DNA of 64,000 nt from assembly GCA_947631865.1 (NCBI GenBank), contig CANRNF010000003.1, positions 16,595 through 80,594 of the forward strand, read 5' to 3'. The notes under the pieces were generated by a model that worked only from the letters and a program-made list of their open reading frames with translations, did not search any database and had not been told where the DNA came from. Positions within the stretch are counted from its first letter, which is position 1. The number at the start of each line of letters is the position of its first letter. A program made the position numbers and the translations under genes. This DNA is from an uncultured Oscillospiraceae bacterium. GTDB taxonomy: Bacteria > Bacillota > Clostridia > Oscillospirales > Oscillospiraceae. Below are positions 4,565 through 47,255 of this stretch, in pieces.

Positions 4565-4632
4565 AAAGTCAGGTTTGGTTTCGTAAAAGTCAGTGCGCAC
4601 CCGTTGCGGAAAGCAGACTGGCATAGTAAAAT
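4565..4632 (+). promoter_or_regulatory. LytTR-type direct-repeat box R1 plus -10 (TAAAAT) upstream of M13 peptidase 1
   Basis: AAAGTCAG occurs at 4565-4572 and again at 4586-4593, a 21-bp phasing. TAAAAT lies 33 nt downstream of the second repeat. Confidence 0.6.
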
Positions 4633-4681
4633 GATCACAGTAGGGCGGCGGCCATCCGCTGCAGAAGGGAGAACATAGATC

Positions 4682-6700
4682 ATGAGAGCAAAGCGCATAC
4701 TGTCCCTTGTCCTGGCGCTGGTGATGGCGCTGGGGTGCAGCGGTACGGCTTTCGCCGCGGAGGAGGACGACGGCGTCCTGAACTTTTTGCCGGAGACCAA
4801 GCCCGCGCCGGAGGACGACCTGTACGGGTATGTGAACTTCGACATCCTGCAGGGCAAGGAGATACCGGTGGGCCATTCCTCCTGGGATGGGTTCACTGAA
4901 AACGACCTGGAGATCACTGAAGAACTCAACGCGATGCTGGACGAGTATGTGGCCAACGCCAGGACCTACGAGAAGGGGACGCCGGAGCAGAAGATCGCGG
5001 ACCTGTACCTGTCCTATGTGGACGAGGAAAGCCGCAACGCCACCGGCATCGAGCCCCTGCGGCCCTATCTGGACGCCATCAATAACGCCGGGACCGTTCA
5101 GGAGTATGTGGAGGCCATCGCCACGCTGGACGGAGAGCTGGGCTATGGAAGCCTGCTGTCCACCAGCATGGAAACGGACCTTTACGATTCCACCCGCTAC
5201 GCCGCTATTATAAGACAGGCGGACCTGGGACTGGGAAAGGCATACCTGGAGGACGAGAGCATGTCCTCCTACTGGGATATCTATAAGACCTTGGTCACGA
5301 AGCTGTTCGTGCTGTACGGCCTGAGCGAAGAGGAGGCCGCCGAAAAGGCCGGGGACGTCTTCACCCTGCAGACAAAGCTGGCCGCGTCCACGCTGTCCGA
5401 GGCGGAACTGTACGACTATTCCAAGTCGTACCAGCCCAAAAGCCTGGACGAGGTGGCCGCGCTGCTGCCCACCGTCGATATGGGGCCGGTGCTGGAGGCC
5501 TTCGGGCTGAGCGGGACAGAGCGGTTCCTGGTGATGGACGTGGGGCAGCTGGAGGCCGTCGGCCAGGTGCTCACGGAGGAGAACCTGCAGCTTTTGAAGG
5601 ATTTCTCCACCGCCACGCTGCTGAAGGATATGGCATCTTACCTTAGCATGGACTACCGGCAGGCAAAGCAGGATTACTCCTCAGCCCTGAATGGCGTCAC
5701 TCCCAAGGAACTGTCGGAGGCGGCCAAGGACTCGGTGGAGTCGAACCTGAAATGGGAGTTTGCCAAGCTCTACGTGGAGAAATACTTCCCCGAGGAGAGC
5801 AAGCAGGAGGTCCTGGATATCGTCGATGAGATCGTGGCCTGGTTCTACGGGCGCATCGACGAGCTGGACTGGATGGGCGATGAGACGAAGGCGGCCGCCA
5901 AGAAGAAGCTGGACACCCTGACGGTGAAGATCGGCTACCCCGATAGCTATGATTTCGTGGCGTATCTGGATGATGTGGAGTATGTCTCCCCGGCGGACGG
6001 CGGCAGCCTCATCGAGAACAAGATGGCTCAGTGGCGTACCGAGGCTGCGTTCAGCCACAGCCAGGTGGGCCAGGAGGTGGACAAGTCCGCCTGGGGCATG
6101 ACGCCTCAGACCGTGAACGCCTACTATGACCCCGCCGCCAACGAGATCGTATTCCCCGCGGGAATCCTCCGGGGCGTGTTCTTCGATCCGGACGCCAGCC
6201 GGGCGGCCCATCTGGGCTCCATCGGCGCGGTCATAGGCCATGAGCTGACCCATGCCTTCGACAGCTCCGGCGCCCAGTTTGACGAGAACGGCAACCTGAA
6301 TATGTGGTGGACCGAGGAGGACTACGCCAACTTCACGGCTCTGCAGCAGAAGGTCATCGACTACTATGACGCTTTTGAGGTGATGGACGGCGTCACTGTC
6401 AACGGCGAACTGACCCTTGGGGAGAACATCGCCGACCTGGGCGCGGTGCACTGCGTTACGGAGCTGTGCGGGGACGACCCGGAGGCCCTGCGGGAGCTGT
6501 TCACCGCCTGGGCCAGGTCTTGGGTCCTCGTGGAGACCCGCGAGAAATTTGATAAGCTGATCCGCACGGACGTCCATTCCCCCAAGGTGGCCCGCGTCAA
6601 CGCGGTGGTCAGCGCCACCGACGCCTTCTATACGGCCTATGACGTGCAGGAGGGCGACGGCATGTACGTGGCCCCTGCCGACCGGGTGGGCATCTGGTAA
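4682..6700 (+). CDS. M13 family zinc metallopeptidase (PepO/neprilysin-like) lipoprotein, copy 1
   Basis: 672 aa with lipobox MALGC, HELTHAF (HExxH) and GENIADLG (ExxxD). Confidence 0.88.
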   Translation: MRAKRILSLVLALVMALGCSGTAFAAEEDDGVLNFLPETKPAPEDDLYGYVNFDILQGKEIPVGHSSWDGFTENDLEITEELNAMLDEYVANARTYEKGTPEQKIADLYLSYVDEESRNATGIEPLRPYLDAINNAGTVQEYVEAIATLDGELGYGSLLSTSMETDLYDSTRYAAIIRQADLGLGKAYLEDESMSSYWDIYKTLVTKLFVLYGLSEEEAAEKAGDVFTLQTKLAASTLSEAELYDYSKSYQPKSLDEVAALLPTVDMGPVLEAFGLSGTERFLVMDVGQLEAVGQVLTEENLQLLKDFSTATLLKDMASYLSMDYRQAKQDYSSALNGVTPKELSEAAKDSVESNLKWEFAKLYVEKYFPEESKQEVLDIVDEIVAWFYGRIDELDWMGDETKAAAKKKLDTLTVKIGYPDSYDFVAYLDDVEYVSPADGGSLIENKMAQWRTEAAFSHSQVGQEVDKSAWGMTPQTVNAYYDPAANEIVFPAGILRGVFFDPDASRAAHLGSIGAVIGHELTHAFDSSGAQFDENGNLNMWWTEEDYANFTALQQKVIDYYDAFEVMDGVTVNGELTLGENIADLGAVHCVTELCGDDPEALRELFTAWARSWVLVETREKFDKLIRTDVHSPKVARVNAVVSATDAFYTAYDVQEGDGMYVAPADRVGIW

Positions 6701-6721
6701 AGGCAGGAGAACTTTCATCGG

Positions 6722-6757
6722 AAGAGGCCATTCCTGTACGGGGACGGCCTCTTTTCG
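6722..6757 (+). terminator. Rho-independent terminator after M13 peptidase 1
   Basis: Stem AAGAGGCC/GGCCTCTT followed by a T-run. A near-identical structure follows copy 2. Confidence 0.6.
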
Positions 6758-6780
6758 CCCGGGCCGGATGGGGATCGCGT

Positions 6781-6849
6781 AAAAGTCAGGTTTGATTACG
6801 AAAATGTCGGCCCTGCCGCATTGAGAAACTCCGTCGGGTATGATAAAAT
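6781..6849 (+). promoter_or_regulatory. LytTR-type direct-repeat box R2 plus -10 upstream of the response regulator/kinase operon
   Basis: AAAAGTCAG at 6781-6789 and AAAATGTCGG at 6801-6810; the GTCAG/GTCGG cores are 21 bp apart. TAAAAT at 6844-6849 lies 33 nt after the second repeat. Confidence 0.6.
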
Positions 6850-6975
6850 TAACTTGGAGAGATGTTTTGAAGAGAACGGTGTGTATGTGCGGCCGGTTCA
6901 TTGATCCTTTATGGCCCTAATGGAGCGCAGGTGGTATTCATTAGGACATAAGGCCCGCTGTGAGGAGGTATGTCT

Positions 6976-7707
6976 ATGCGGATCGCGGTCTGCGACGATG
7001 ACCTGCGGGAGATGGAACAATTTGAGGACGCCCTGCAGGGATGGGACCCGACCAGGAAAGCGGAGAAGTTTATGGACGGCGCTTCGCTGCTGGAGGCGGC
7101 CAAAGACGTACCCGGCTTCGATATCGTGTTTTTGGACATCTACATGCCAGGAGAAAACGGCGTTGACATCGCGAAGCGGCTGCGGGAGATATCGCCTGAG
7201 ACGGGTATCGCCTTCGTCACCACCAGCACGGAGCACGCGGTGGAGGCGTTTTCCCTGCACGCGCTGCATTATCTTGTCAAGCCGGTGACGACCAGGGGCG
7301 TGGTGGAGGCCTTCCGGCGGCTGACGGAGATCCGGAAAAGTCAGCGGGAGCGGATATCGTTCGCTGTCGGCACGAACCGGATCACGGTGTTTCTGGATCA
7401 AATCTGCCTGCTTGAAAACGACAACCATGTGGTGAACGTCTCCCTGTCCGACGGACGGCGGCTGAAGGTATGGATGAGCTTTGGCGAGCTGGAGCGAAAG
7501 CTGAGCGGGAGCTTTTTGCGTATCAACCGGGGGATCATCGTCAATATGGACTATATCGCCCAAATGGGGGCTGACACCTGTACCCTGCGGGACGGGAGCC
7601 GGCTGCCCATCGCCGTACGGCAGAGCGCTGCCATCCGCGCGGCCTATGACGACTATGTGTTCGACCAGCTCTCCCGGCGAAAGAGCTTTTCGGAGGTACA
7701 GCCATGA
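6976..7707 (+). CDS. LytTR-family (AgrA/ComE-like) response regulator
   Basis: The receiver domain shows CDDD, FLDIYMPGENG and LVKP. A C-terminal LytTR DNA-binding domain follows. ATG 6976 lies 7 nt after GAGGAGG; an alternative ATG is at 6970. Confidence 0.88.
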   Translation: MRIAVCDDDLREMEQFEDALQGWDPTRKAEKFMDGASLLEAAKDVPGFDIVFLDIYMPGENGVDIAKRLREISPETGIAFVTTSTEHAVEAFSLHALHYLVKPVTTRGVVEAFRRLTEIRKSQRERISFAVGTNRITVFLDQICLLENDNHVVNVSLSDGRRLKVWMSFGELERKLSGSFLRINRGIIVNMDYIAQMGADTCTLRDGSRLPIAVRQSAAIRAAYDDYVFDQLSRRKSFSEVQP

Positions 7708-9089
7708 GCGTGGGCGTGTATCTGCGTAACGCGGCAGGCTTCTTTCTCGAGATATTCCCCTGCGTGATGTTGGTCTTCCTGCCCTTTTCGGAGGAGTCGT
7801 TCCGCTTTCACAGAAAGCGCGTCCTTCTCGGGGAGGCGGCCGCGGTAACGGTGCTGTCGGCTCTGTTCCCGGCGGCGATGTACGCCGCGGCGCAGCGGGA
7901 CATGGCGGTGGCCGCCAATATCTTCATGGGCGCCGTCATATTGCTCACGCTCATCGCGCAGGGCTGGCTGATACGGGAGGCCCCGATCAAGAAGACCATG
8001 GCCGTGTTCGCGGTGGTATTTTACGGCGTGACACAGTACTGGCTGGTGAACATGCTGATCGGCGCCGTGTCCGGGCTGGTCCCGCTGTCTCAGGAACTGG
8101 AGAACTGGTCGGTATATTCCCCCTGCGGGCTGGCGATGTACGCGGTCACGACGGTGATCCTGCTGCCGCTGATGCTCCTTCTGGTGATCCAGCCGCTGAG
8201 CGAGTATCTCCAGGAGATAGAGACAAAAAAGATGCGCCAGGAGTTCTTTATCCTGGCGGCGACCACGGTGGTATTCCTTCTGCTGGTCATGGCGGCTGAC
8301 ATCAGCTACTATCGTGTGGGGTACCGGGCGTATCACCGGGAACTGCCCCAGCTTCTGGTGGCGCTGATGGACCAGCTGGCCATCTATTGGCTGATCTTCC
8401 GGGAGTCCGTGTGGCGCAAACGGGACAGCGACCACCAGCGGGCTCTGGAGATACAGCAGCTCCAATATGAAAAGATCGTCAGCGATATGGAGAACACCCG
8501 GCGGATGAGCCATGACCTGCGCCACCACTACAGCTCTCTGAACGAGATGCTTCAGGACGGCAGGCTGGATGAGATGAAGCGCTATCTCTCCCAGGTGCTG
8601 GACGACAACGCCAAGCGGATGAACGAGGTCTACTGTGAGGACATGGCGGTCAACGGGCTTTTGCAGTACTACGCGGGCGTCGCCCGGGCGGAGGGGATAC
8701 GCTGCGACATCCAGGCCCAGTGCGACAACGTGACCATCGCCCCCACGGATCTGACGGTGGTGTTCGGCAACGCCATGGAAAACGCCGTCAACGCCTGCCG
8801 GAAGTGCGGCCAGGACCGGTGGATCCTCGTGCGCGTCGGCACGGTGCAGGGTTCGCTGGCCATCGAGATATCCAACGCCTGCAGCGGCGTGTGCATCAGC
8901 CGCCGGGAGCAGACCGAGGATGGCTTCCTGCCCGCGGAGGCGTTTTTGAGTGAGCGGGCCAACGGCGGGTACGGCCTGCGCAGTATCGCCCAGACCGCCC
9001 AGAAATACGGCGGCAGCGCCAGGTTCCGGTATGACGCCGGGGAGGATACGTTCACATCCCGTATCCGGTTGAATATGCCCACGGAATGA
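7704..9089 (+). CDS. AgrC/ComD-like (HPK10-type) membrane sensor histidine kinase
   Basis: 461 aa with about 6 N-terminal TM segments. It has an H-box SHDLRHH, an N-box FGNAMENAVNA and a G-box GGYGLRSI. An ATGA overlap couples it to the regulator gene. Confidence 0.85.
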   Translation: MSVGVYLRNAAGFFLEIFPCVMLVFLPFSEESFRFHRKRVLLGEAAAVTVLSALFPAAMYAAAQRDMAVAANIFMGAVILLTLIAQGWLIREAPIKKTMAVFAVVFYGVTQYWLVNMLIGAVSGLVPLSQELENWSVYSPCGLAMYAVTTVILLPLMLLLVIQPLSEYLQEIETKKMRQEFFILAATTVVFLLLVMAADISYYRVGYRAYHRELPQLLVALMDQLAIYWLIFRESVWRKRDSDHQRALEIQQLQYEKIVSDMENTRRMSHDLRHHYSSLNEMLQDGRLDEMKRYLSQVLDDNAKRMNEVYCEDMAVNGLLQYYAGVARAEGIRCDIQAQCDNVTIAPTDLTVVFGNAMENAVNACRKCGQDRWILVRVGTVQGSLAIEISNACSGVCISRREQTEDGFLPAEAFLSERANGGYGLRSIAQTAQKYGGSARFRYDAGEDTFTSRIRLNMPTE

Positions 9090-9115: not shown

Positions 9116-9152
9116 CGGCCCTTTCGCCGCGCTGGATCGTATAAAGAGACAG
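9116..9152 (+). promoter_or_regulatory. Conserved bipartite promoter-like element P1 (CGGCCCTTT-N13-CGTATAAAGAGACAG)
   Basis: One of five copies with an invariant 13-nt spacer and an upstream A/T tract. It lies 68 nt upstream of the A1 start. Confidence 0.55.
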
Positions 9153-9205: not shown

Positions 9206-9388
9206 ATGTCCGAAGAGAAGAAGAACGAAGTCCAGGAGCAGAACGAGCTGAACGAGAACGATCTGGACGGCGTGTCCGGCGGCGCCTTTGCCGAGGTAAA
9301 CCCGCTGAGCATGGGCCGTAATGTCCTCAGGACCACTGAAGACGGAAGGGCTGACGGCCCCATGACCAGCCGCTCCAACATTCGGTGA
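9206..9388 (+). CDS. A1: GG-leader peptide, Cys-free 34-aa core; candidate signalling peptide
   Basis: MSEEKKNEVQEQNELNENDLDGVSGG|AFAEV... SD AAGGAGG lies upstream. The gene sits directly downstream of the kinase. Confidence 0.7.
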   Translation: MSEEKKNEVQEQNELNENDLDGVSGGAFAEVNPLSMGRNVLRTTEDGRADGPMTSRSNIR

Positions 9389-9422: not shown

Positions 9423-9629
9423 ATGATGAACGTAAACACCATGGACACCCGGCTCAGGGCGCTTTTTGACCGCCAGAGGAAGGTCAGCGATCCGCGCATG
9501 GCGCGGCTCATCGGGGAGACAGAGACCCGGTGGGGCGCGCCCATCGCGGACGACGACCTGGGATCGGTGGCGGCGGCGGGCGACCCGGACGCAGGCCAGA
9601 GAAAAACACCCTGGGATGAGCGCAGATGA
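9423..9629 (+). CDS. Hypothetical 68-aa protein translationally coupled to the sigma factor gene
   Basis: SD GGGAGGA lies upstream. Its stop overlaps the sigma start (ATGA). No family was recognised. Confidence 0.5.
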   Translation: MMNVNTMDTRLRALFDRQRKVSDPRMARLIGETETRWGAPIADDDLGSVAAAGDPDAGQRKTPWDERR

Positions 9630-10099
9630 TGGACGGGGAAGAGCTGTACCTGCGGTACAGGGATAAGGTCCTGGCCTATATCCGCGCCAGGGTGGAAAAC
9701 GAACAGGACGCGGAGGACCTTTGCTCCACCGTCTTTATGAAGGCGTGGGCAAACCTGCCGGATTATGACGGGCAGAGGTCCTCTGTCTCCACATGGCTTT
9801 TTTCCATCGCCCACAACGCGATCATCGACTTTTACCGCGGCCGGCGGCCGGCGGCCGAATTGGACGAGACGGTGCCGGCCCCGGAGCGGGACCCGGAACT
9901 GGAGGCCCTGGCGGAGGCGCTGGAGGCCCTGCCGGAGCGGGAGCGGGACGTGATCGTGCTGTACTACTACCACGGACTGACCCTGAAGGAGATCGCGGTC
10001 CACATGCGCCTTGCCTACAGCACGGTGAAGCTCTGCCACAGCCGGACGCTGGAGGCGCTCAGACAGATGATGGGCGGAACAGAGGCCCTGAAGATATGA
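9626..10099 (+). CDS. Sigma-70 family, ECF-like RNA polymerase sigma factor
   Basis: 157 aa containing only region 2 (DAEDLCSTVFMKAW, STWLFSIAHNAIIDFYR) and region 4 (LPERERDVIVLYYYHGLTLKEIA). Confidence 0.85.
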   Translation: MMDGEELYLRYRDKVLAYIRARVENEQDAEDLCSTVFMKAWANLPDYDGQRSSVSTWLFSIAHNAIIDFYRGRRPAAELDETVPAPERDPELEALAEALEALPERERDVIVLYYYHGLTLKEIAVHMRLAYSTVKLCHSRTLEALRQMMGGTEALKI

Positions 10100-10132: not shown

Positions 10133-10429
10133 ATGGAGCAGAAAGTGATCGAGGAATTCCTGGAAAAGGCGAAGCAGGCAAAGAGCCCGGAGGAGATCAA
10201 GGCCGCCGCGAGGGCGTGCGGTCTGGAGCTGACGGCGGAGAAGCTCACGAAGCTGGACGGCGCGCTTTGTGGAGCGAAGGGCGAGCTGTCCGACGAGGAC
10301 CTGGACGGCGTCGCCGGCGGGAAGCAGAACCTGGAGTATGGCACCCCTGAGTTTTGGCACTATGTAGACGAACAGATCCAAAAATACGGACCGAGTGTCG
10401 TCCCCGCTTTGATGGCGACCTATATGTAA
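10133..10429 (+). CDS. N1: Nif11-like-leader GG precursor, Cys-free core
   Basis: MEQKVIEEFLEKAKQAKSPEEIKAAARACGLELTAEKL...ELSDEDLDGVAGG|KQNLEYG... matches the Nif11 leader architecture. Confidence 0.8.
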   Translation: MEQKVIEEFLEKAKQAKSPEEIKAAARACGLELTAEKLTKLDGALCGAKGELSDEDLDGVAGGKQNLEYGTPEFWHYVDEQIQKYGPSVVPALMATYM

Positions 10430-10482: not shown

Positions 10483-10716
10483 GTGGACGACAACGAGAAC
10501 AAAAAGAGCGGTGAAGAGCTGGCCGACGAGGCCCTGGACAAGGTGGCCGGCGGCGGGTTAATGCGTAAGCCATGCTGCTTTATATGCGGTCGGGACGACA
10601 TTCCCCTGGGAGAGGGTTCCTACCGTGCGGCGGATTATGGAAGATCCATTTCCTATATCTGCGAGGCTTGCTTAAAATCCAACTACGGCCCGGAATGGAC
10701 ATGGCGCAAACTTTGA
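10483..10716 (+). CDS. A2: short-GG-leader precursor, zinc-ribbon-like core (class i)
   Basis: GTG start after AAAGGGGAGG. Leader (M)DDNENKKSGEELADEALDKVAGG; core has CFIC...YICEAC. Confidence 0.8.
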   Translation: MDDNENKKSGEELADEALDKVAGGGLMRKPCCFICGRDDIPLGEGSYRAADYGRSISYICEACLKSNYGPEWTWRKL

Positions 10717-10749: not shown

Positions 10750-11055
10750 ATGGAGCAGAAGAAGATCGAGGAATTCGTGGAAAAAGCGAAGCAGGCCAAG
10801 AGCCCGGAGGAAGTGGAGGCCGCAGCGAAGGCGTGCGGGGTGGAGCTGACGGCGGAGAAGCTCGCGAAGCTGGAGAAATCCCTCCGCGGAAAGAAGGGCG
10901 AGCTGTCCGACGAGGAGCTGGCCGGCGTTTCCGGCGGGGCGGTGGATCCGAGCACGACCGATTGGCTCGCTGAGCAGCTCGTTGAGCAGTTCAAAGAGCA
11001 GATCAAAGACCTCGACCCGGAATTCTTGGAATTGCTGAAGCTGGCTTTGTCCTGA
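10750..11055 (+). CDS. N2: Nif11-like-leader GG precursor, Cys-free amphipathic core
   Basis: Its leader is nearly identical to N1. ...ELSDEELAGVSGG|AVDPSTTDWLAEQLVEQFKEQI... Confidence 0.8.
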   Translation: MEQKKIEEFVEKAKQAKSPEEVEAAAKACGVELTAEKLAKLEKSLRGKKGELSDEELAGVSGGAVDPSTTDWLAEQLVEQFKEQIKDLDPEFLELLKLALS

Positions 11056-11078: not shown

Positions 11079-11345
11079 ATGGACAACAGCGAGAACAAAA
11101 AGAGCTACGAGGAACTGGCCGACGAGGCATTGGACAAGGTGGCCGGCGGTGGCTGGGAATGGCTATGGGGAGACTCATCGCCCAGAGTGACCCCATGCGG
11201 CATTTGCCGCGGAACTGAGGAGCAAGCTATATTATATACGATCGATTTCGGCAACGGCGGCAGCTCCGGGATGTACTTGTGTTCCAAGTGCCTCGCGGAC
11301 GAAAGGAAAAAATATAAAGTGACCGAAGGCTGGGGCGGGAAATGA
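11079..11345 (+). CDS. A3: short-GG-leader precursor, zinc-ribbon-like core (class i)
   Basis: Leader MDNSENKKSYEELADEALDKVAGG; core has PCGIC...YLCSKC. Confidence 0.82.
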   Translation: MDNSENKKSYEELADEALDKVAGGGWEWLWGDSSPRVTPCGICRGTEEQAILYTIDFGNGGSSGMYLCSKCLADERKKYKVTEGWGGK

Positions 11346-11399: not shown

Positions 11400-11618
11400 A
11401 TGAATCAAGACGAAAATAAAAAAAGCGTTGAAGAACTGGCGGACGAGGCCTTGGACGCGATAACGGGCGGGAAGAGGGATGAATACGTACGCCCCACGGT
11501 CACCTGTCCCAAGTGCCATCAGCAAAAAGAGAGGCTGGTGACATGCCGTGACCCGAAGGATCCGACAAAGCGTGAGTCCATGTGCCCCGACTGTGCCCGC
11601 GATCTCGGGTATGTGTGA
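11400..11618 (+). CDS. A4: short-GG-leader precursor, zinc-ribbon-like core (class i)
   Basis: Leader MNQDENKKSVEELADEALDAITGG; core has CPKC...MCPDC. Confidence 0.8.
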   Translation: MNQDENKKSVEELADEALDAITGGKRDEYVRPTVTCPKCHQQKERLVTCRDPKDPTKRESMCPDCARDLGYV

Positions 11619-11650: not shown

Positions 11651-11863
11651 ATGGAAAACAGCGAGAACAAAAAGACCCCGGAAGAGCTGGCCGACGAGGC
11701 GTTGGACAAGGTGGCCGGGGGGGAGTACGGTGGGGATTTTGTTGTACTCAACTGCAGATCCTGCCGCCACCATAACAATGACTGTCCCTACGGAACTCCG
11801 CTGGGTGCCGTGTTAGAATTGAAACCATCGTATTGGACACTGTGCCCAAGCAAGGAGGCTTGA
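11651..11863 (+). CDS. A5: short-GG-leader precursor, class ii Cys core
   Basis: Leader MENSENKKTPEELADEALDKVAGG; core has NCRSC...DCPY...LCP. The internal ATG is preferred over the track start 11582 because of the SD and the leader alignment. Confidence 0.78.
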   Translation: MENSENKKTPEELADEALDKVAGGEYGGDFVVLNCRSCRHHNNDCPYGTPLGAVLELKPSYWTLCPSKEA

Positions 11864-12981: not shown

Positions 12982-13172
12982 GTGAATAACGAACGCAAAC
13001 GTGTACCCCCCGAAGCGCTGGACGACGATGCCATGGACAGGGTCGCCGGGGGAGGATCACTCTCAGACGGACAGGGGTTCTACCACTGTAAAAACTGCGG
13101 TGCGCAGTTCACAAAAACCAGATCGTGTATGGCCGCCGTCTCAGCTGCCCCAGCTGCGGGGCATGGCTGTGA
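12982..13172 (+). pseudogene. A10: frameshifted GG-leader precursor (class i); single-A deficit in A5 run at 13113-13117
   Basis: GTG start, (V)NNERKRVPPEALDDDAMDRVAGG...FYHCKNCGAQFTK. With one more A the frame reads NQIVYGRRLSCPSCGAWL-stop at 13172, parallel to A11. As written the frame runs on into A11. Confidence 0.65.
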
Positions 13173-40011: not shown

Positions 40012-42186
40012 ATGAAGAAGCAAGAGATCAAAAAGCCCGTTACCAAGGGCGTGGCCAAAGTGCCGGTGGTCATGCAGATGGAGGCGCTGGAGTGCGGCGC
40101 CGCCAGCCTGACCATGGTGCTGGCCTATTATGAGAAATGGATACCGCTGGAGCAGGTGCGCGCCGACTGCGGCGTGAGCCGGGACGGCTCCAACGCCAAA
40201 AACGTGCTGAAGGCCGCGAGGAGCTACGGCCTCACGGCGAAGGCATACCGCTTTGAGCCGGATGACCTGCGGGAGCGGGGAACGTTCCCCTGCATCATCC
40301 ACTGGAACTTCAACCACTTCGTGGTGCTGGACGGGTTCAAGGGCGGCAAAGCCATATTGAACGACCCGGCCCGGGGCGTGACCCCGGTGAGCATGGAGAC
40401 CTTTGACGAGTCCTTCACCGGCATCTGCATGATGTTCGAGCCGGGGGAGGGGTTCCAGCCCGGCGGCAGCCCCAAGAGCATGCTGGGCTACGCGAAAAAG
40501 CGGCTCACCGGCGCCGGGGCGGCGCTGGTGTTCGTGACGCTGACCACGCTCATCAGCTCCCTTTTCGGCGTGATCAGCCCCGCCTTCTCCCGGATATTTA
40601 TGGACCGTCTGCTCACGAGGCAGAACCCGGAGTGGCTGTGGCCGTTTTTGGCGGCCCTGGCCGGCGTGAGCATTTTGCAGCTCGTCGTGGCATGGGTCCA
40701 GGCGGTTTGGTCCCTTCGCATCACAGGCAAGCTGGCTTCCGTGGGTTCGGCAACGTTCCTGTGGAAGGTGCTGCACATGCCCATGGAGTTTTTCTCCCAG
40801 CGCATGGCCGGCGACATCCAGCAGCGGCAGACCACCAACGCCAACATCGCCCAGGAACTGGTGAATACCATAGGGCCGCTGGTGCTGAACGCCATCATGA
40901 TGGTGTTCTACCTGGTGGTCATGCTCCGGTATTCCTGGATATTGACCCTGGTAGGACTGGCCTCCGTGGTCATCAACCTGGGCGTGAGCCGCCTTATATC
41001 CAAAAAGCGTGTGAACATCATGCGCGTGCAGATGCGCGACGCGGGCAAGCTCGCCTCCTCCACCATGGCGGCCATCGAAATGATCGAGACCATCAAGGCC
41101 GCCGGCGCGGAGAACGGCTACTTCGAGCGCTGGGCGGGCTACCAGGCCAGCGTGAACACCCAGCAGATGCGCTTTACCAAGACAGACGCGTATCTCGGCC
41201 TTATCCCCTCCATCGTCAGCGTCATCAGCGACATGGCCATCCTGTTCCTGGGCGTGCTGTTCGTCATGCAGGGCAGCTTCACCATCGGTATGGTCATGGC
41301 CTTCCAGGGCTTCCTCATGAGCTTCACCGCCCCGGCCACTACCCTCATCGGCGCGGGCCAGACCATCCAGGAGATGCGTACGGAGATGGAGCGCGTGGAG
41401 GACGTGATGGAGTACCCCGAGGACAGCAATATGGTCGAGGGGGAGGAGCAGGAAAGCTACGACAAGCTCTCCGGCGCTCTGGAGATGAAGCACGTCACCT
41501 TCGGCTACTCCAAGCTGGCGGAACCCCTCATCGAGGACTTCAATCTGAGCCTGAAGCCGGGCAGCCGGGTGGCCTTCGTGGGAGGCTCCGGCTGCGGCAA
41601 GAGCACCCTTTCCAAGCTCATATCGGGCCTTTACCAGCCCTGGAGCGGGGAGATCCTCTTCGACGGCAAGCCCATCCGGGAGATCGACCGGAGCGTGTTC
41701 ACCGGCTCACTCGCGGTGGTGGATCAGGACGTCATCCTCTTTGAGGACACCATTGCTGAAAATATCAAGATGTGGGATAAGTCCATCGAGGACTTCGAGA
41801 TGATCATGGCGGCCCGGGACGCTGGTATCCACAGCGACATCGTCCAGCGTGAGGGCGGCTACAACCACAAGCTGACAGAGGGCGGCCGTGACTTCTCCGG
41901 CGGCCAGCGCCAGCGCATGGAGATCGCCCGTGTCCTGGCCCAGGACCCCACCATCATCATCCTGGACGAGGCCACCTCCGCCCTGGACGCCAAGACGGAG
42001 TACGAAGTGGTCAAGTCCATCAAGGACCGGGGCGTCACCTGTATCGTGGTGGCCCACCGGCTCTCCACCATCCGGGACTGCGACGAGATCATCGTCCTGG
42101 ACCAGGGCAAAGTGGTGGAGCGGGGGACCCACGACGAGCTATACGCCAAGGGCGGATATTACACCCGCCTGGTGTCCAATGACTGA
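40012..42186 (+). CDS. Peptidase-containing ABC transporter (PCAT): C39 peptidase + permease + ATPase
   Basis: The C39 domain shows QMEALECGAASL, NHFVVL and NDP. It has 6 TM segments, Walker A GGSGCGKST, signature FSGGQRQR and Walker B IILDEATSALD. Confidence 0.9.
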   Translation: MKKQEIKKPVTKGVAKVPVVMQMEALECGAASLTMVLAYYEKWIPLEQVRADCGVSRDGSNAKNVLKAARSYGLTAKAYRFEPDDLRERGTFPCIIHWNFNHFVVLDGFKGGKAILNDPARGVTPVSMETFDESFTGICMMFEPGEGFQPGGSPKSMLGYAKKRLTGAGAALVFVTLTTLISSLFGVISPAFSRIFMDRLLTRQNPEWLWPFLAALAGVSILQLVVAWVQAVWSLRITGKLASVGSATFLWKVLHMPMEFFSQRMAGDIQQRQTTNANIAQELVNTIGPLVLNAIMMVFYLVVMLRYSWILTLVGLASVVINLGVSRLISKKRVNIMRVQMRDAGKLASSTMAAIEMIETIKAAGAENGYFERWAGYQASVNTQQMRFTKTDAYLGLIPSIVSVISDMAILFLGVLFVMQGSFTIGMVMAFQGFLMSFTAPATTLIGAGQTIQEMRTEMERVEDVMEYPEDSNMVEGEEQESYDKLSGALEMKHVTFGYSKLAEPLIEDFNLSLKPGSRVAFVGGSGCGKSTLSKLISGLYQPWSGEILFDGKPIREIDRSVFTGSLAVVDQDVILFEDTIAENIKMWDKSIEDFEMIMAARDAGIHSDIVQREGGYNHKLTEGGRDFSGGQRQRMEIARVLAQDPTIIILDEATSALDAKTEYEVVKSIKDRGVTCIVVAHRLSTIRDCDEIIVLDQGKVVERGTHDELYAKGGYYTRLVSND

Positions 42187-42200: not shown

Positions 42201-44399
42201 ATGGGATGGTTTGACGAACAAATAAGAGAACGCCGGCGCCAGGACCAGCAGGCATTCGAGGAGAGTTTCGCCTCCATCGCGGGGGCCGTGCTGGGCCGCC
42301 GGGTCATGCCCGGCGACGACAGCCAGCAGGCCAGAAGCGCCATGGAGGAGATCCTGCGCTACTACCACGCCAAACCCCGGGAGATGCCCGACACGGTGAA
42401 GGACTTCAACGAACAGCTGGAGTTCATGCTGCGGCCCTACGGCATCATGCGCCGGACGGTGACGCTGGAGAAGGGGTGGTACAAGGACGCCATCGGGGCC
42501 ATGCTGACCCGCCGGAAGGAGGACGGCGCCCTCACGGCCATGATCCCCACGGGCCTCACCGGCTACACCTACGCCGACCCGGCCACAGGCAAGCGGCAGC
42601 GGGTGAATGCCCGGACAGAGGAGCTTTTTGAAAGAGAGGCCATCGCCTTCTATAAGCCATTCCCCCAGGGGAAGATCGGCATCCCCGGCCTCATGCGGTA
42701 TATAGCCGCCTGCACCTCTTGGGCGGACCGGATCTTCTTCGCCCTGTCCGCGCTGGCGGTGTCTCTGGTGGGACTGCTGCTGCCCCGGCTCAATAACCTC
42801 CTGTTCTCCCGGGTCACGGACAGCGGGAGCGTGGTGGTTCTGGCGGCGCTCATCTCCTTCATGCTGCTGGTGACCGTGAGTTCCAGGATCCTGGAGGTAG
42901 TGAAGCAGCTGCTCACCACACGGATGAACACAAAGGTCTCCGTGTCGGTGGAGGCCGCGGGTATGATGCGGCTTTTCTCCCTGCCTGCCAACTTCTTTAA
43001 ACAGTACAGCACCGGCGAGATCGCCACCCGCTGCATGAATATCAAGCAGCTGGCCTCCTTGCTGGTGTCCTCGGTGGCCGCGGTGGGGCTGACCAGCCTG
43101 TTCTCCCTGCTGCAGATCACCCAGATCTTTGCTTATGCACCGGCGCTGGTGGTGCCGGCGCTGGCCATCGTGGCCGTGACGATGGTGTTCTCGGTGCTCA
43201 CGTCCATCCGCCAGAAGGGCATCACCCAGCAGATGATGGAGCAGAGCGCCAAGGAGACCGGCCTTACCTACGCCCTCGTCAGCGGCGTGCAGAAGGTGAA
43301 GCTCTCCGGCGCGGAGAAGCGGGCCTTCGCCAAGTGGAGCGAGCAGTACGCCAAGGTGGCGCGGCTGCAATATGACCCGCCCATGTTCTTGAAGGTGAAC
43401 AGCGTCATCAGTACGGCCATCACCCTCGTCGGCACACTGGTGATGTACGCTGTGGCGGTGGAGAGCGGCGTGTCCGTTTCGGAATACTACGCCTTCAACT
43501 CCTCCTACGCCATGATCAGCGGCGCTTTTATGTCCCTGGCCGGCATCGCCTCCATGGTGGGCCAGATCATCCCCATCCTCAATATGGCCAAGCCCATACT
43601 GGACACGGAGCCGGAGATCAGCTCCGACAAGCAGGTGGTGGAGCGCATCAGCGGCGGCATCGAACTCAATAACGTCTCCTTCCGCTACTCGGAGGATATG
43701 CCCAACGTGGTGGACGACATGAGCCTCAAGATCCGGCCGGGCCAGTACGTGGCCATCGTGGGCCGGACCGGCTGCGGCAAGAGCACGCTCATGCGGCTGC
43801 TGCTTGGTTTCGAGACGCCCCAGAAGGGCGCCATCTACTACGACGGCCGGGACATGGCCGGTCTGGACCTGAAGAGCCTGCGCCGGCGCATGGGTGTGGT
43901 GATGCAGGACGGGAAGCTCTTCCAGGGCGATATCTACTCCAACATCACTATCTCCGCGCCCTGGCTCACCATGGACGACGCCTGGGAGGCGGCGGAAATG
44001 GCGGGCATCGCCGAGGACATCCGGCGCATGCCCATGGGGATGCACACCCTGATCTCCGAGGGAAGCGGCGGCATCTCCGGCGGCCAGCGCCAGCGGCTGC
44101 TCATCGCCCGGGCCATCGCTCCCAAGCCCCGCATCCTCATGTTCGACGAGGCCACCTCGGCCCTGGACAATATCACCCAGCGGGTGGTGTCCGAGTCTTT
44201 GGATCAGCTGAAATGCACCCGTATCGTCATAGCCCACCGGCTCAGCACCATCCGCCACTGCGACCGGATCATCGTCCTGGAGGGCGGCCATATCGTGGAG
44301 GACGGCACATACGAGGAGCTCATCGCCAAACACGGCTTCTTCGCCGAGCTGGTGTCCCGGCAGCGCTTGGACACGGATACATCCTCGGACGGCAAATAA
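42201..44399 (+). CDS. Second bacteriocin-export ABC permease/ATPase lacking the peptidase domain (NHLP/NHLM-type partner)
   Basis: 732 aa with a non-peptidase N-terminal domain, a TMD, GRTGCGKST, ISGGQRQR and LMFDEATSALD. Confidence 0.85.
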   Translation: MGWFDEQIRERRRQDQQAFEESFASIAGAVLGRRVMPGDDSQQARSAMEEILRYYHAKPREMPDTVKDFNEQLEFMLRPYGIMRRTVTLEKGWYKDAIGAMLTRRKEDGALTAMIPTGLTGYTYADPATGKRQRVNARTEELFEREAIAFYKPFPQGKIGIPGLMRYIAACTSWADRIFFALSALAVSLVGLLLPRLNNLLFSRVTDSGSVVVLAALISFMLLVTVSSRILEVVKQLLTTRMNTKVSVSVEAAGMMRLFSLPANFFKQYSTGEIATRCMNIKQLASLLVSSVAAVGLTSLFSLLQITQIFAYAPALVVPALAIVAVTMVFSVLTSIRQKGITQQMMEQSAKETGLTYALVSGVQKVKLSGAEKRAFAKWSEQYAKVARLQYDPPMFLKVNSVISTAITLVGTLVMYAVAVESGVSVSEYYAFNSSYAMISGAFMSLAGIASMVGQIIPILNMAKPILDTEPEISSDKQVVERISGGIELNNVSFRYSEDMPNVVDDMSLKIRPGQYVAIVGRTGCGKSTLMRLLLGFETPQKGAIYYDGRDMAGLDLKSLRRRMGVVMQDGKLFQGDIYSNITISAPWLTMDDAWEAAEMAGIAEDIRRMPMGMHTLISEGSGGISGGQRQRLLIARAIAPKPRILMFDEATSALDNITQRVVSESLDQLKCTRIVIAHRLSTIRHCDRIIVLEGGHIVEDGTYEELIAKHGFFAELVSRQRLDTDTSSDGK

Positions 44400-44417: not shown

Positions 44418-44454
44418 CGGCCCTTTTGGCGGGGAGAAACGTATAAAGAGACAG
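44418..44454 (+). promoter_or_regulatory. Conserved bipartite promoter-like element P4
   Basis: CGGCCCTTT-N13-CGTATAAAGAGACAG, 38 nt upstream of the A19 ATG. Confidence 0.55.
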
Positions 44455-44477: not shown

Positions 44478-44708
44478 ATGAACGACAGCGGAAACAAAAG
44501 GATCGATGAAGAGCTGGCCGAGGAGACGCTGGACGCAGTGACGGGTGGTATCGGCATCAGCGTCACGCCGGAGGACGGCGTCGTGGGCATCGACTGTAAC
44601 TGCGGAACGATCATAAGTGTGCCGAAGGGCGCCACCAGCGTGCAATGCCCCGGGTGCGGCAGGAAATGGCGCATCAACGGCAAAGTGGTGACCCCGGCTA
44701 TCCTCTGA
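44478..44708 (+). CDS. A19: short-GG-leader precursor, class iii core (CxCG...CPxC)
   Basis: Leader MNDSGNKRIDEELAEETLDAVTGG; core has DCNCGT...QCPGCGRKW. Confidence 0.8.
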   Translation: MNDSGNKRIDEELAEETLDAVTGGIGISVTPEDGVVGIDCNCGTIISVPKGATSVQCPGCGRKWRINGKVVTPAIL

Positions 44709-44751: not shown

Positions 44752-44976
44752 ATGGAGAACAAAGGGAATAGGAAGAACGTTGACGAGCTGGCCGACGAGG
44801 CCCTGGACGCCGTGGCGGGGGGTCTCCCCGACATCGTCACCACCGCTGAAAATGGAGTGATCACCTGTACCTGCGGCACGGTCATAAACGTGAAGGGCGT
44901 CAGTGACGTGCGTTGCCCTCAGTGCAAGCAGCGTTGGCATCGATTTTTGGGACAGGCTGGCTGGGGCGTTTTTTAA
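44752..44976 (+). CDS. A20: short-GG-leader precursor, class iii core
   Basis: Leader MENKGNRKNVDELADEALDAVAGG; core has TCTCGT...RCPQCKQRW. The internal ATG 44752 follows GAAAGGAGAA. Confidence 0.8.
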   Translation: MENKGNRKNVDELADEALDAVAGGLPDIVTTAENGVITCTCGTVINVKGVSDVRCPQCKQRWHRFLGQAGWGVF

Positions 44977-45023: not shown

Positions 45024-45242
45024 ATGAGCGAAGATAAGAAAATAAGCGAAGAAAAGGCCCTGCCCGACGAGACTCTGGAGGGCGTCGCGGGGGGCGCCGT
45101 GGCACCCTCGCTGCAGGCTGCCAAATGCTCTGTCTGCCACGAGATCGTGATGGTACAGGCTGCCTGTTTGCCGTCGTTTGGCAGGTGCCCTAAGTGTCAG
45201 AAGGAAGCGTACTTCAGCGAGATAGGCTATAACTTCAGCTGA
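45024..45242 (+). CDS. A21: GG-leader precursor, class iii-like core
   Basis: MSEDKKISEEKALPDETLEGVAGG|AVAPSLQAAKCSVCHE...GRCPKCQKE. Confidence 0.75.
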   Translation: MSEDKKISEEKALPDETLEGVAGGAVAPSLQAAKCSVCHEIVMVQAACLPSFGRCPKCQKEAYFSEIGYNFS

Positions 45243-45304: not shown

Positions 45305-46603
45305 ATGGAAACGACAAAATTGGCGCCGGTGAGTCTCGCCATGTTTTACGGGGCGAACCGGGACTTTGCAAACGCGTTCAGCGTCCGGGTGACGCTGAAA
45401 AACCCCATCGAGCCGGAGGCGCTGCGCCGGGCCGTGGACAAGGCCATGGAGCGGTACCCCTATTTTGCCGTGCGCCTGACGGCGCAGGGCGAGGCGCTGG
45501 TGCTGGAGGACAACCCCCTGCCGGTGACCATCGTGAAGGGACCGGAGCTGGCGAAGCTGAATACGGCGGCGTCCAACTACCACCTGGTGGGTGTGAGCTA
45601 CGAGCGCACCAGCGTCATCTTCGGGGCGTTCCACGCCCTGACGGACGGGGCCGGCGCCTTCCACTGGATCAAGACGACGCTCTATTATTACCTCTGCGAG
45701 ACCGAGGGACGGACCCTTGACCCGGCGGGCGTGCGCCTGGCGGGAGAAGAGATCCCCGAGGGGGAGATGGAGGACCCGTTCAATACGGAGATACCGGAGA
45801 CGGAGGAGCCCATGCTGCCCAAGTGGAGCGGCGCCTTCTCCATCACGGACCACACCCCCGTGAGCAGGCAGCGCTGCTGGCATATCCGCATCGGGGAGAC
45901 ATCCTTCATGAAGTACACCCGCACCCAGGACGGCAGCCCCGCCACCATCACCTCGGCCTTCATGGCCAAGGCGTTGCACACCCTGTACCCGGACATGACA
46001 GAGCCGGTGGTGTGCGGCATGGCCCACAACATCCGGGACGTGATCCGTAAGCCCCTGGCCCACCAGAGCATGGTCAAGCTCATAGAGCTCTCCTACCCGC
46101 CCCGGCTGAAGGGGTCGGACATCGAGCGGCTGGCTATCTGCAGCCGCGGCATGGTGATGCTCCAGAGCCAGCCGGAGACGGTGTGGGACACGGTAAAGAA
46201 GCAGCTTGCCCTGGAAAAGGAGCTGGAGGGGCTGACGCTGCAGGAGAAGTTCGACCTGCTGCGGCCCATCGTCACCGGCGCCCGGACAGGCATCGGCAAT
46301 CTGCCCGCCTCCGCCCCCGTGAGCTTCAAGGTCAGCTATGTTGGCCGGACGGACTGGGGCAGTATGGCCAATATGATCGAATCCGTGCACTGCTCCGTGA
46401 CCACGGACGGCAGCGGCATCTGCATCGAGATCAACACCTGCAACGGGTACTTCGACTACTGCTTCATGCAGGAGTTCGAGGACGACAAGTACGTGAACAC
46501 CTTCGTGGACCTGCTGGAGCAGGAGGGCATCTACTGCACGGTCAGCGGGCCCTACGACGTACATGTGCCCAAGATGCGCCTGCCGGACGATCCGGAGGAA
46601 TAA
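45305..46603 (+). CDS. Free-standing condensation/CAT-superfamily-like acyltransferase (HxxxDG)
   Basis: 432 aa. GAFHALTDGAGAFHW resembles the HHxxxDG active-site motif. Size and layout fit a stand-alone C-domain/PapA5-like enzyme. The assignment is tentative. Confidence 0.45.
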   Translation: METTKLAPVSLAMFYGANRDFANAFSVRVTLKNPIEPEALRRAVDKAMERYPYFAVRLTAQGEALVLEDNPLPVTIVKGPELAKLNTAASNYHLVGVSYERTSVIFGAFHALTDGAGAFHWIKTTLYYYLCETEGRTLDPAGVRLAGEEIPEGEMEDPFNTEIPETEEPMLPKWSGAFSITDHTPVSRQRCWHIRIGETSFMKYTRTQDGSPATITSAFMAKALHTLYPDMTEPVVCGMAHNIRDVIRKPLAHQSMVKLIELSYPPRLKGSDIERLAICSRGMVMLQSQPETVWDTVKKQLALEKELEGLTLQEKFDLLRPIVTGARTGIGNLPASAPVSFKVSYVGRTDWGSMANMIESVHCSVTTDGSGICIEINTCNGYFDYCFMQEFEDDKYVNTFVDLLEQEGIYCTVSGPYDVHVPKMRLPDDPEE

Positions 46604-46619
46604 ACGTTTTTTCGCCGGC

Positions 46620-46656
46620 CGGCCTTTTTGGCCGGCCGGAACGTATATAGGGGCAG
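46620..46656 (+). promoter_or_regulatory. Conserved bipartite promoter-like element P5 (variant) upstream of idi
   Basis: CGGCCTTTT-N13-CGTATATAGGGGCAG, 35 nt upstream of GTG 46677. The left half also forms a perfect palindrome CCGGCCGGCC-TTTTT-GGCCGGCCGG. Confidence 0.45.
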
Positions 46657-46676
46657 TAAGCGGAAGGAGGACGGCC

Positions 46677-47255
46677 GTGAGCGGTGAGCGGGACATCATC
46701 CTGGTGGACGAACAGGACCAGGTCGTGGGCTTTGGGGAGAAAATGGAGGTCCACCGGAAGGGGCTGCTGCACCGGGCGTTCTCCATCTTTATCTATGACC
46801 GGGAGAACGACCGGATGCTGCTGCAGCAGAGGGCCCCGGGAAAGTACCATTCCGGCGGCCTTTGGACCAACGCCTGCTGCTCCCATCCACGGAAGGGCAT
46901 GACCATGGAGGCGTGCCTGAACCGGCGTCTGGGGGAGGAGCTGGGCCTGCGGACGGACCTTCCCATCGCGGCGGCGGCCAGGGACGGGTTCCGCCCCTGC
47001 GGGAGGTTCCTCTATGAGATGCGCCAGGGCGATACCGGCGAGCACGAGATGGACCACGTGTTCCTGTACTGCCCTGCTGAGACGATCGATATCGACGCGC
47101 TGGACTTTGACCGGTCGGAGATCGGAGCGCTCAAATGGGCCGGCAGGGAGGAACTGCACGCCTGGCTGGAGGAGCGGCCGGAGGATTTCACCGCATGGTT
47201 CGCCCCGGCGCTGGCGCTGGCTGAGCGGGCCATAGAACAGGAAAAGGGCGCTTAG
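46677..47255 (+). CDS. idi: Isopentenyl-diphosphate delta-isomerase, type 1 (Nudix)
   Basis: HRAFSIFIY, GGLWTNACCSHP and GEHEMDHVF are present. GTG 46677 lies 6 nt after GGAAGGAGG. The track ORF extension overlaps the previous gene. Confidence 0.85.
   Translation: MSGERDIILVDEQDQVVGFGEKMEVHRKGLLHRAFSIFIYDRENDRMLLQQRAPGKYHSGGLWTNACCSHPRKGMTMEACLNRRLGEELGLRTDLPIAAAARDGFRPCGRFLYEMRQGDTGEHEMDHVFLYCPAETIDIDALDFDRSEIGALKWAGREELHAWLEERPEDFTAWFAPALALAERAIEQEKGA

Follow-up and report, generated by a model that had tools for sequence, protein, structure and literature searches.

A locus of about 40 kb in the genome of an uncultured Oscillospiraceae bacterium from the rabbit gut encodes numerous small precursors with double-glycine (GG) leaders, an exporter built around a peptidase-containing ATP-binding cassette transporter (PCAT) and a set of regulators. 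It lies within a 64-kb stretch of contig CANRNF010000003.1 (the window, meaning the whole of that stretch); positions are those of the window, and features are located on the plus strand unless stated otherwise. The interpretation that we favor, with a probability of roughly one half, is the regulated PCAT export of unmodified mini-proteins, stabilized by metal or by disulfides, which would act outside the cell and probably in competition. It is based on gene content, sequence conservation and structural models.

A regular-expression scan and a leader hidden Markov model (HMM), both applied to all six frames, detected 19 short-leader genes. In total, the plus strand carries 23 intact GG-leader genes and one frameshifted copy, which reproduces exactly the count that an earlier reading of the same DNA (the original prediction) had given for four arrays. 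Nineteen of the 23 intact genes share a short leader of 24 amino acids (aa) with the near-invariant sequence MNDSENKKxxEELADEALDxVAGG, and the HMM recognizes these genes, all on one strand, with E-values of 1e-9 to 1e-16. Three others (10133, 10750 and 25994, named after their first position) carry Nif11-type leaders of about 60 residues that end in ...ELSDE(D/E)L(D/A)xV(A/S)GG. Two of the 23 precursors pass the TIGR03798 cut-off of 32.3 bits, namely 10133 (35.1 bits) and 10750 (33.4 bits), and 25994 stays below it with 26.1 bits; TIGR03793 yielded at most 15 bits for the short-leader precursors tested. The leader of gene 9206, which adjoins the kinase gene, is distinct from all others. Shine-Dalgarno sites (AGGAG/GGAGG) precede all intact precursor genes (23/23) and, together with orthologues in at least five related species represented by metagenome-assembled genomes (MAGs) and in many metagenomes, identify these genes as real. 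The gaps between genes within the arrays measure 3–78 bp, except for 241 bp at the site of the pseudogene (12982–13172), which shows the identical frameshift in a metagenome assembly of independent origin.

The candidate pheromone gene 9206–9388 encodes a 26-aa leader and a Cys-free core of 34 aa. In array 1, two Nif11-type precursors with Cys-free cores (10133–10429, 10750–11055) stand among short-leader genes of core family A (10483–10716, with five Cys and a GTG start; 11079–11345, the AlphaFold2 target; 11400–11618; 12139–12378; 12407–12682; 12710–12961) and family B (11651–11863, with a CxxC-C-CP pattern; 11867–12112), followed by the pseudogene and its paralogue 13203–13391, a CxxC...CxxC precursor with a 38-aa core. 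The separate short-leader gene 17249–17413 encodes a Cys-free 30-aa core that is conserved across species. Array 2 comprises a CxxC...CxxC precursor (22860–23120), a family A member with a 21-aa leader (23139–23405) and a family B member with six Cys (23434–23700), all of the short-leader type. The short-leader genes of array 3 belong to family B (25121–25363, 25384–25629) and family A (25646–25915), and the Nif11-like gene 25994–26233 with its 19-aa Cys-free core lies downstream of them. The 33-aa open reading frame (ORF) in between (25896–25997), in which a leader-like part ending in KLDNVAGG is followed by only 12 residues, is probably the decayed remnant of another precursor. Array 4 consists of two CxC...CxxC precursors (44478–44708, 44752–44976) and one CxxC...CxxC precursor (45024–45242) with short leaders.

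Most of the cores are rich in cysteine. The original prediction had listed 19 cores of 45–65 aa with 4–6 Cys; the number holds if the pseudogene is counted (18 are intact), but the measured length is 38–67 aa. A CxxC (or CxC)...CxxC pattern is present in 13 of the 18 intact Cys-rich cores and a CxxC-C-C pattern in the other five, with CxxC-x(3-7)-C...CP as the family B signature, and CPxC-type knuckles are frequent. In family A the residues C40, C43, C68 and C71 are invariant in all 35 aligned sequences. The cores are hydrophilic, with a grand average of hydropathy mostly below 0 and a net charge between −7 and +3. When 19 different precursors were scanned against Pfam and NCBIfam, nothing but sub-threshold leader or zinc-finger noise emerged, and the family A profile found no significant match among PDB sequences (E >= 0.004), the weak matches being mostly Zn domains and some c-type cytochromes. 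The prediction that the cores lie outside described families is thus borne out in Pfam, NCBIfam and the solved structures. In the AlphaFold2 model calculated from the family A alignment the leader is disordered and the core, with a predicted local distance difference test score (pLDDT) of 70–84, adopts a beta-hairpin (51–56/62–67), a helix (69–78) with the second CxxC at its beginning and a short strand (80–83), an arrangement that looks treble-clef or zinc-ribbon-like. The family A profile also retrieves cytoplasmic multi-repeat zinc-finger proteins with the Pfam domain Stc1, a LIM-like zinc finger. On the grounds of model and sequence, family A looks like a Zn-binding mini-domain.

The same unit occurs in other contexts. 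Five proteins matched by the family A profile, P0203 (1016 aa), P0223 (2168 aa), P0244, P0247 and P0291, contain 6–9 tandem CxxC...DG...CxxC units, and some of them are called Stc1 by Pfam; in P0312, where the profile matches three stretches, this unit type is fused to an endonuclease VII domain. A modular build of leaders and cores is seen in the metagenome proteins P0046, P0239 and P0033: P0046 presents a family A core with 78% identity to that of 11079 behind a long Nif11-like leader, and P0033 has two tandem leaders in front of a Cys-free core of the 17249 type.

The export genes lie directly upstream of array 4. They encode a short HlyD-like accessory protein (39528–40004; 158 aa, one transmembrane segment), the PCAT itself (40012–42186), which joins a C39 peptidase domain to an ATP-binding cassette (ABC) exporter and keeps the catalytic Gln, Cys and His, and a second ABC permease/ATPase without a peptidase domain (42201–44399). 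The PCAT scores 951 bits against TIGR03796 (cut-off 853) and the second ABC subunit 731 bits against TIGR03797 (cut-off 709); the C39 domain matches PF03412 with E = 1.8e-32 and contains the motifs QMEALECGAAS and NFNHFVVL. The NHLM-type trio that had been proposed therefore stands for these two subunits, but the HlyD-like gene encodes a stub, with 42.9 bits far below the TIGR03794 cut-off of 156 and matched in the first 47 positions only. The leader positions L-12, L-7, V-4 and GG, evident from the alignment and the HMM, agree with the PCAT1/CtA structure, and together with the conserved catalytic residues they make GG-dependent cleavage and export of the precursors by the PCAT plausible, as had been suggested. 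The original prediction had also regarded the cores as much longer than typical; their size is not unprecedented, because the 66-aa cargo exported by the PCAT1 of Clostridium thermocellum follows a leader of 24 aa (PMC6959990), and large size, lack of modification and occasional disulfide bonds are also known from class II microcins (PMC12219008).

Quorum and sigma-factor control of the locus had been claimed from its gene content, and both layers are now supported by cis-elements. A response regulator with a LytTR DNA-binding domain (6970–7707), an AgrC/ComD-type histidine kinase with six transmembrane segments and a HATPase_c_5 domain (7704–9089) and an extracytoplasmic function (ECF) sigma factor that has just regions 2 and 4 (9626–10099; TIGR02937 103 bits, Pfam r2 and r4) are recognized by Pfam and NCBIfam as predicted. 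Comparison of the intergenic regions revealed two types of promoter box, each present in four copies versus 0.01 expected by chance in the window. The L-box is a direct repeat with a 21-bp period, CGTAAAAGTCAG-N9-CGAAAATGTC, and is located upstream of the metallopeptidase gene M13a (L-box 1 at 4561–4591, CGNAAAAGTCAG with the 21-bp period), the regulator-kinase operon (L-box 2, 6778–6808), the second metallopeptidase gene M13b (L-box 3, 30007–30037) and the string of genes from the small STAS protein to the exporter (L-box 4, 32237–32267). Such a repeat has the geometry of AgrA/ComE/BlpR-type LytTR operators, and kinase, regulator and direct-repeat boxes together fit the combination of LytTR regulator and HPK10-type kinase by which Blp-like loci are defined. 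L-box 2 is followed by a sigma-70-like promoter, TTGAGA-17-TGnTAAAAT, at 6821–6849.

The S-box, GGCCCTTT-N13-CGTATA or GGCCC-N16-CGTATA, has the layout of an ECF promoter and lies 30–60 bp upstream of the first gene of each of the four peptide arrays. S-box 1 (9117–9143) lies in front of the sigma factor's own operon, an arrangement that would give positive feedback; the other copies are located at 22802–22828, 25063–25089 and 44419–44445 (S-boxes 2 to 4). Related MAGs retain both elements. Peptide genes are again preceded by an S-box, and an L-box stands in front of the regulator and M13b genes of the near-identical loci L001, L002, L004 and L014, in front of genes for fusions of another domain to STAS (X+STAS; L012, L015, L016) and in front of a MatE-HATPase-like gene (L009). 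The boxes support a first tier of pheromone, kinase and LytTR regulator, which would act on the genes for regulator, peptidases and exporter, and a second tier in which the sigma factor would control all cargo arrays; this two-tier circuit is supported by the sequence, short of proof. The 68-aa ORF that overlaps the start of the sigma gene (9423–9629) is without a family match and is a possible anti-sigma factor or co-factor, the RsbW-like domains of the locus being encoded 23 kb away from the sigma gene.

A profile of the 19 short-leader precursors retrieved no more than 66 clusters from 5.8 billion proteins, each of which stems from a metagenome or MAG, and a scan of a species-level genome collection found it in at least five uncultured Oscillospiraceae MAGs from the rabbit gut. 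The neighborhood survey that had been proposed was carried out on leader-family loci fetched from related MAGs, in which the leader HMM found 98 further matches, near-identical copies from the same species included. These loci share accessory genes and promoter boxes with the window; the C39_2 peptidase, the Sel1 giants, the 987-aa protein, the acyltransferase-fold protein p432 and the string of STAS-APH, HlyD-like stub, PCAT and second ABC subunit are conserved neighbors in this clade. The leaders are very alike, and the cores are highly diverse yet fall into recurring subfamilies. An exhaustive HMMER search of the family A alignment against 1.84 billion representatives gave 248 matches at E <= 1e-3, including peptides that combine other GG or Nif11-type leaders with CxxC...CxxC cores; in one such lineage with different leaders (L027) a STAS protein that closely resembles the small one of the window is encoded after the array. 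In the comparison of the window precursors with the two closest genomes (L004, L014), the cores have a synonymous divergence (dS) of 0.025 and a ratio of nonsynonymous to synonymous divergence (dN/dS) of 0.36, whereas the leader-coding dS is 0.126 and thus five times higher. This difference suggests exchange among paralogous leaders, i.e. a gene-conversion-like shuffling with the cores staying put.

Secreted and surface proteins are interleaved with the arrays. The C39-like peptidase, the sortase-anchored beta-helix protein and the two Sel1 proteins of the original prediction were recovered with Pfam and from sequence features: a secreted papain-like C39_2 peptidase with signal peptide and intact Cys and His (13407–14201), a 987-aa surface protein (14259–17222) with signal peptide, acidic repeats, G-rich beta-helix-like repeats and a sorting signal (SPATG, a transmembrane segment and RRRERR), a lipoprotein with 38 Sel1 repeats (17430–22781) and a secreted protein with 10 Sel1 repeats (23783–25045). 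The 987-aa protein has no Pfam match, and a search of PDB sequences with it returned nothing significant. C39_2, Sel1 and 987-aa proteins flank the arrays in most of the related loci. In addition, the locus encodes two M13 (neprilysin/PepO-like) metallopeptidases, M13a (4682–6700; PF05649/PF01431) with a lipoprotein-type signal and M13b (30096–32159), which is 79% identical to M13a and probably starts at the ATG at 30141. The two M13 modules (4561–6780 and 30007–32230) have near-identical upstream L-boxes and downstream terminator hairpins and bracket about 23 kb with arrays 1–3.

The predicted STAS/RsbW/PP2C module is present, with all three domain types encoded together, but it is not specific to the peptide system. 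It consists of a stand-alone STAS anti-sigma-factor antagonist (32543–32839; TIGR00377 72.6 bits), a fusion of a MatE-like membrane domain with an RsbW-like domain of the HATPase_c_2 type (32852–34600), a membrane PP2C (SpoIIE) phosphatase with the same type of fusion (36266–38293) and a fusion of STAS with an APH-type kinase (38307–39488). The STAS-APH family is widespread and comprises 8000 or more clusters at about 68% identity, and the cassette STAS/SpoIIE+HATPase_c_2/HD_4/STAS-APH is found in other Clostridia where neither a PCAT nor peptides lie nearby; we therefore reject its specificity for this system and regard it as a generic signaling module. In the present clade it is physically joined to the exporter, located behind an L-box and extended by the MatE-HATPase and GH3 genes. 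The cassette is highly conserved across Clostridia MAGs (L030, L031) and appears to be an uncharacterized partner-switching module in its own right. A further STAS protein of about 415 aa, absent from the window, stands beside arrays in related MAGs (L008:10332-11585, L008:11859-13118, L009:17099-18334, L012:2555-3808, L015:1315-2718); it has a methyltransferase-like motif, VLD(I/L)xCGYTP, in the unannotated N-terminal and STAS in the C-terminal part, and an L-box lies directly upstream of it in L012, L015 and L016.

The order of genes runs from M13a, the LytTR regulator, the kinase, the 9206 peptide, the 68-aa ORF and the sigma factor to array 1, continues with the C39_2 peptidase, the 987-aa protein, the 17249 peptide, the 38-repeat Sel1 protein, array 2, the 10-repeat Sel1 protein and array 3, then with two minus-strand genes (Fic and MatE), a plus-strand MatE gene, M13b, the small STAS gene and MatE+HATPase_c_2, and ends with GH3, SpoIIE+HATPase_c_2, STAS+APH, the HlyD-like stub, PCAT, the second ABC subunit, array 4, p432 and an isopentenyl diphosphate (IPP) isomerase that matches TIGR02150 and marks the right edge. 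The large genes were assigned by Pfam and NCBIfam scans of the window proteins, which confirmed the earlier parts list with the size of the HlyD-like protein and the STAS-APH fusion at 38307–39488 as corrections; the two M13 genes, GH3, the MatE+RsbW-like fusion, the 432-aa acyltransferase-fold protein, the IPP isomerase and the minus-strand Fic and MatE genes had been absent from it. According to the same scans, the window contains housekeeping genes from 47 to 64 kb. The notion of about 40 kb as one system receives partial support: the shared promoter boxes tie its parts together, but Fic, two MatE genes and the IPP isomerase are probably passengers, and membership of the whole 40 kb in one system is unproven. 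Directly to the left of L-box 1 lies a tRNA-Leu(CAG) gene (4251–4338, minus strand), the sole Rfam match and a possible marker of an island boundary; a DUF2442/DUF4160 pair (about 3562–4133, minus strand) precedes it, and the same arrangement is present in a related MAG (L004). A strong GC-rich hairpin, GAGCAAGGGGCTCCCCC...GGGGGAGCCCCTTGCT, at 26240–26290 between array 3 and the convergent Fic gene (26299–26904, minus strand) is likely a bidirectional terminator at the end of the array 3 transcript. In L010, three ORFs of 547, 605 and 551 aa without Pfam match (707–6017), with a third-position GC of 0.50–0.55 versus more than 0.8 in their neighbors, lie upstream of a LytTR regulator and a peptide array and may represent foreign DNA.

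The original prediction had stated that the locus lacks a recognizable maturase. Family scans found no LanB/C/M, radical-SAM/SPASM, YcaO, cyclodehydratase or ATP-grasp maturase in the window. Classical maturases are also missing among 20 unassigned ORFs that flank arrays in related MAG loci, which proved to be STAS fusions, AIM24, GDPD, Macro, PFK, Tex, glycosyltransferases, a Ser/Thr kinase, anthranilate synthase or unmatched, and in the precomputed Pfam annotation of L001, L002, L018, L022 and L023. The statement is nevertheless too strong, because two candidate tailoring enzymes are encoded in the locus. One is p432 (45305–46603; 432 aa), a cytoplasmic protein without Pfam match or significant hit in a search of PDB sequences, whose structural model (pLDDT 90.6) has a two-lobed CAT-like fold and retrieves condensation-domain, BAHD and PapA5 acyltransferases with Foldseek (probability 1.0, E 1e-16 to 1e-13). 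In its HxxxDG motif H110 is invariant and D114 and G115 are conserved in at least 90% of 42 homologues. The gene adjoins arrays or exporter in four loci (the window, L005, L006 and L022), and more distant homologues reside in unrelated housekeeping contexts; a role as dedicated maturase is thus unsupported by broad synteny. A relationship of p432 to full-length HlyD or to STAS fusions was rejected, since it has no transmembrane segment and no similarity to the X+STAS proteins. The other candidate is a GH3-family adenylate-forming amido-synthetase with Pfam GH3 N, M and C domains (34611–36269) in the export operon. In L018 (CANQGC010000034.1) a p432 homologue with 45% identity is preceded by two small ORFs (68 and 76 aa), by a HATPase_c_5 kinase of 639 aa and by a protein of 1426 aa without Pfam match; L018 may be a second, different peptide-signaling locus that uses the same acyltransferase-fold protein.

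These two enzymes are central to the main alternative, that the precursors belong to the RiPPs (peptides synthesized by ribosomes and modified after translation), with Cys and possibly other residues modified before export by an unlinked or unrecognized enzyme for which p432, GH3 and the STAS-APH kinase are candidates. A conserved leader, hypervariable cores, many paralogues, Nif11 leaders and an NHLM exporter are the hallmark of NHLP/N11P systems (PMC2887384), and the confident acyltransferase/condensation fold of p432 with its invariant His, its position beside arrays or exporter and the GH3 gene in the export operon point in the same direction. The classical enzymes are missing from the loci examined, however, the distant p432 homologues argue against a dedicated role, and GH3 is absent from the exporter neighborhoods of L015, L016 and L022. 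Cys spacing and the predicted hairpin and helix also fit a Zn domain better than the cores of sactipeptides, ranthipeptides or lanthipeptides, and NHLP/N11P families without identified modifying enzyme exist, in which leader conservation tracks the transporter (PMC2887384). On balance we consider RiPP precursors a doubtful, if serious, explanation. Several observations nevertheless weigh against the export of unmodified, folded mini-proteins. By sequence and model, p432 and GH3 would be able to acylate or ligate and are encoded inside the locus. Prochlorosins with ProcM are an example of NHLP/N11P systems in which the maturase is unlinked to its precursors, and our view of the genome comprises about 64 kb, one window, which leaves room for such an enzyme. 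The description of the cores as zinc-ribbon-like mini-proteins finds support in family A, with its four Cys, the hairpin-helix model and the Stc1 matches; family B found no match in the PDB and is thus without structural support. The AlphaFold2 confidence for family A is only moderate, and a Foldseek search of the core model against the PDB gave nothing significant (best E = 0.46). A link between the partner-switching proteins and this ECF sigma factor is conjecture. The hydrophilic, near-neutral cores are unlike most pore-forming bacteriocins, which is atypical and not decisive for a competitive role, and no plausible gene for a small membrane immunity protein was found between 4.3 and 47.4 kb, where every small hydrophobic ORF is antisense to a known gene.

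The last two points would suit an unlikely alternative in which the mini-proteins are surface ligands or building blocks that dock on the Sel1 lipoproteins or the beta-helix protein and form a coat, an adhesion layer or a matrix, comparable to the GG-motif EbfG proteins that are exported by PteB in Synechococcus biofilms. Sel1 giants, C39_2 and the 987-aa protein are interleaved with arrays in the window, L006, L009, L011-L014 and L017, C39_2 stands among the peptides in L022, and the cores are soluble and domain-like. Quorum-type LytTR control of large polymorphic GG arrays is the classic layout of a bacteriocin locus, however, and the Sel1 proteins could equally well provide immunity or sequestration. 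Highly improbable is the scenario of largely non-functional chance ORFs or of unrelated operons that are merely juxtaposed over 40 kb. The likely passengers and the independent occurrence of the partner-switching cassette elsewhere would be in accordance with juxtaposition, but the leader HMM scores of 19 genes on one strand, the Shine-Dalgarno sites of all precursors, the invariant Cys, the cross-species orthologues with a core dN/dS of about 0.36 and the promoter boxes common to the parts speak against it; for the peptide genes, a chance pattern is effectively refuted.

Comparison with known systems separates familiar from undescribed traits. The locus resembles Blp/Com loci (BlpRH/BlpC/BlpAB) in its LytTR regulator and AgrC/ComD-type kinase, the pheromone candidate beside the kinase, the 21-bp repeats, the PCAT with a complete C39 active site and the several arrayed structural genes with GG leaders. 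It differs in the second tier, an ECF sigma factor with its own box before every array, in the lack of adjacent small membrane immunity genes, in the hydrophilic, domain-like Cys4 cores, which replace cationic or hydrophobic peptides, and in the accessory protein cut to 158 aa next to an NHLM exporter with two ABC subunits. The NHLM exporter was described together with NHLP/Nif11 precursors (Haft et al. 2010, PMC2887384). TIGR03796 and TIGR03797 matches above cut-off, two precursors that pass TIGR03798 and the large paralogous expansion with conserved leader and hypervariable cores are shared with these NHLP/N11P systems; in contrast, 19 of the 23 precursors have the short 24-aa leader and no NHLP/Nif11 domain, the locus revealed no partner of the LanM, cyclodehydratase or radical-SAM type, the TIGR03794 homologue is a stub, and the cores are not Ser/Thr/Cys-rich in the manner of heterocycle or lanthionine substrates.

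PCAT1/CtA of C. thermocellum (PMC6959990) is likewise a clostridial PCAT with a 24-residue GG leader, L-12, L-7 and a hydrophobic residue at −4, and its cargo of about 66 residues is transported unfolded; it serves a single substrate instead of 23, whereas the PCAT of the window is accompanied by a second ABC subunit, and we found neither a Cys4/zinc-finger character nor comparable regulation reported for CtA. Class II microcins (PMC12219008) are also unmodified and highly diverse small proteins with GG signals, PCAT export and some disulfides, but they belong to Gram-negative bacteria, use a type I secretion system with an outer-membrane component, are encoded next to membrane immunity proteins and lack CxxC...CxxC knuckles, ECF/LytTR control and Sel1 and C39_2 partners. 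Family A shares with zinc-ribbon, treble-clef and Stc1/LIM-like fingers two invariant CxxC pairs with a hairpin between them and the second pair at the N-terminus of a helix; the known members are intracellular, whereas the present cores are located behind an export leader and have no significant sequence or fold match to a solved structure. Our literature searches found no described GG-leader zinc-ribbon family or expanded set of exported Cys4 zinc-finger-like mini-domains, no ECF-box control of GG-peptide arrays no conserved partnership with Sel1 giants and a secreted C39-like peptidase, and no such absence of immunity genes. GG-leader/PCAT export, the Blp/Com-like regulator layout and the cargo size are already known, and the cargo family with its partners is undescribed.

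According to the reading that we prefer, export of unmodified mini-proteins, a GG-leader pheromone, most likely the product of 9206–9388, would be sensed by the AgrC-type kinase, as judged from cis-elements and domain families. The LytTR regulator would then bind the four L-boxes and switch on its own operon, the two surface M13 peptidases and the string from STAS to the exporter, and the ECF sigma factor would drive the four S-box promoters, one per array and including that of its own operon; this factor may in turn be gated by the RsbW-like, PP2C and STAS proteins. By homology to PCAT1 and LahT, the 24-aa leader would dock on the C39 domain of the PCAT and be cut after GG, and the unfolded core of 38–67 aa would be pumped out by the PCAT/ABC pair with its short membrane partner. 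Outside the cell most cores would fold unmodified into Cys4 mini-domains, presumably with Zn(II) or, failing that, with two disulfides. Least certain are the last steps, in which the mini-proteins would serve as bacteriocin-like competition factors and the Sel1 lipoproteins, the secreted C39-like peptidase and the sortase-anchored protein as binding, immunity or processing partners. Tentatively, and with less confidence than for the export of unmodified mini-proteins as such, we propose an undescribed effector class of zinc-finger-like mini-proteins, released unmodified through a PCAT under quorum and ECF control, for which the giant Sel1 lipoproteins would provide a receptor, an immunity sponge or a display scaffold. 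If true, its logic of secretion plus partner would be distinct from that of RiPPs and classical bacteriocins.

The locus represents a compact regulatory circuit in which a pheromone would act on LytTR boxes and an ECF sigma factor on a sharply defined promoter box, and its very conserved leader may be reusable as a secretion tag. Modification of the cores by p432 or GH3 would, if true, amount to new RiPP chemistry. GG-leader/PCAT export is usually discussed for bacteriocins, pheromones and RiPPs; exported and fast-diversifying zinc-finger-like mini-domains would, if confirmed, widen the range of its cargo and represent a new type of extracellular effector in uncultured gut Clostridia.

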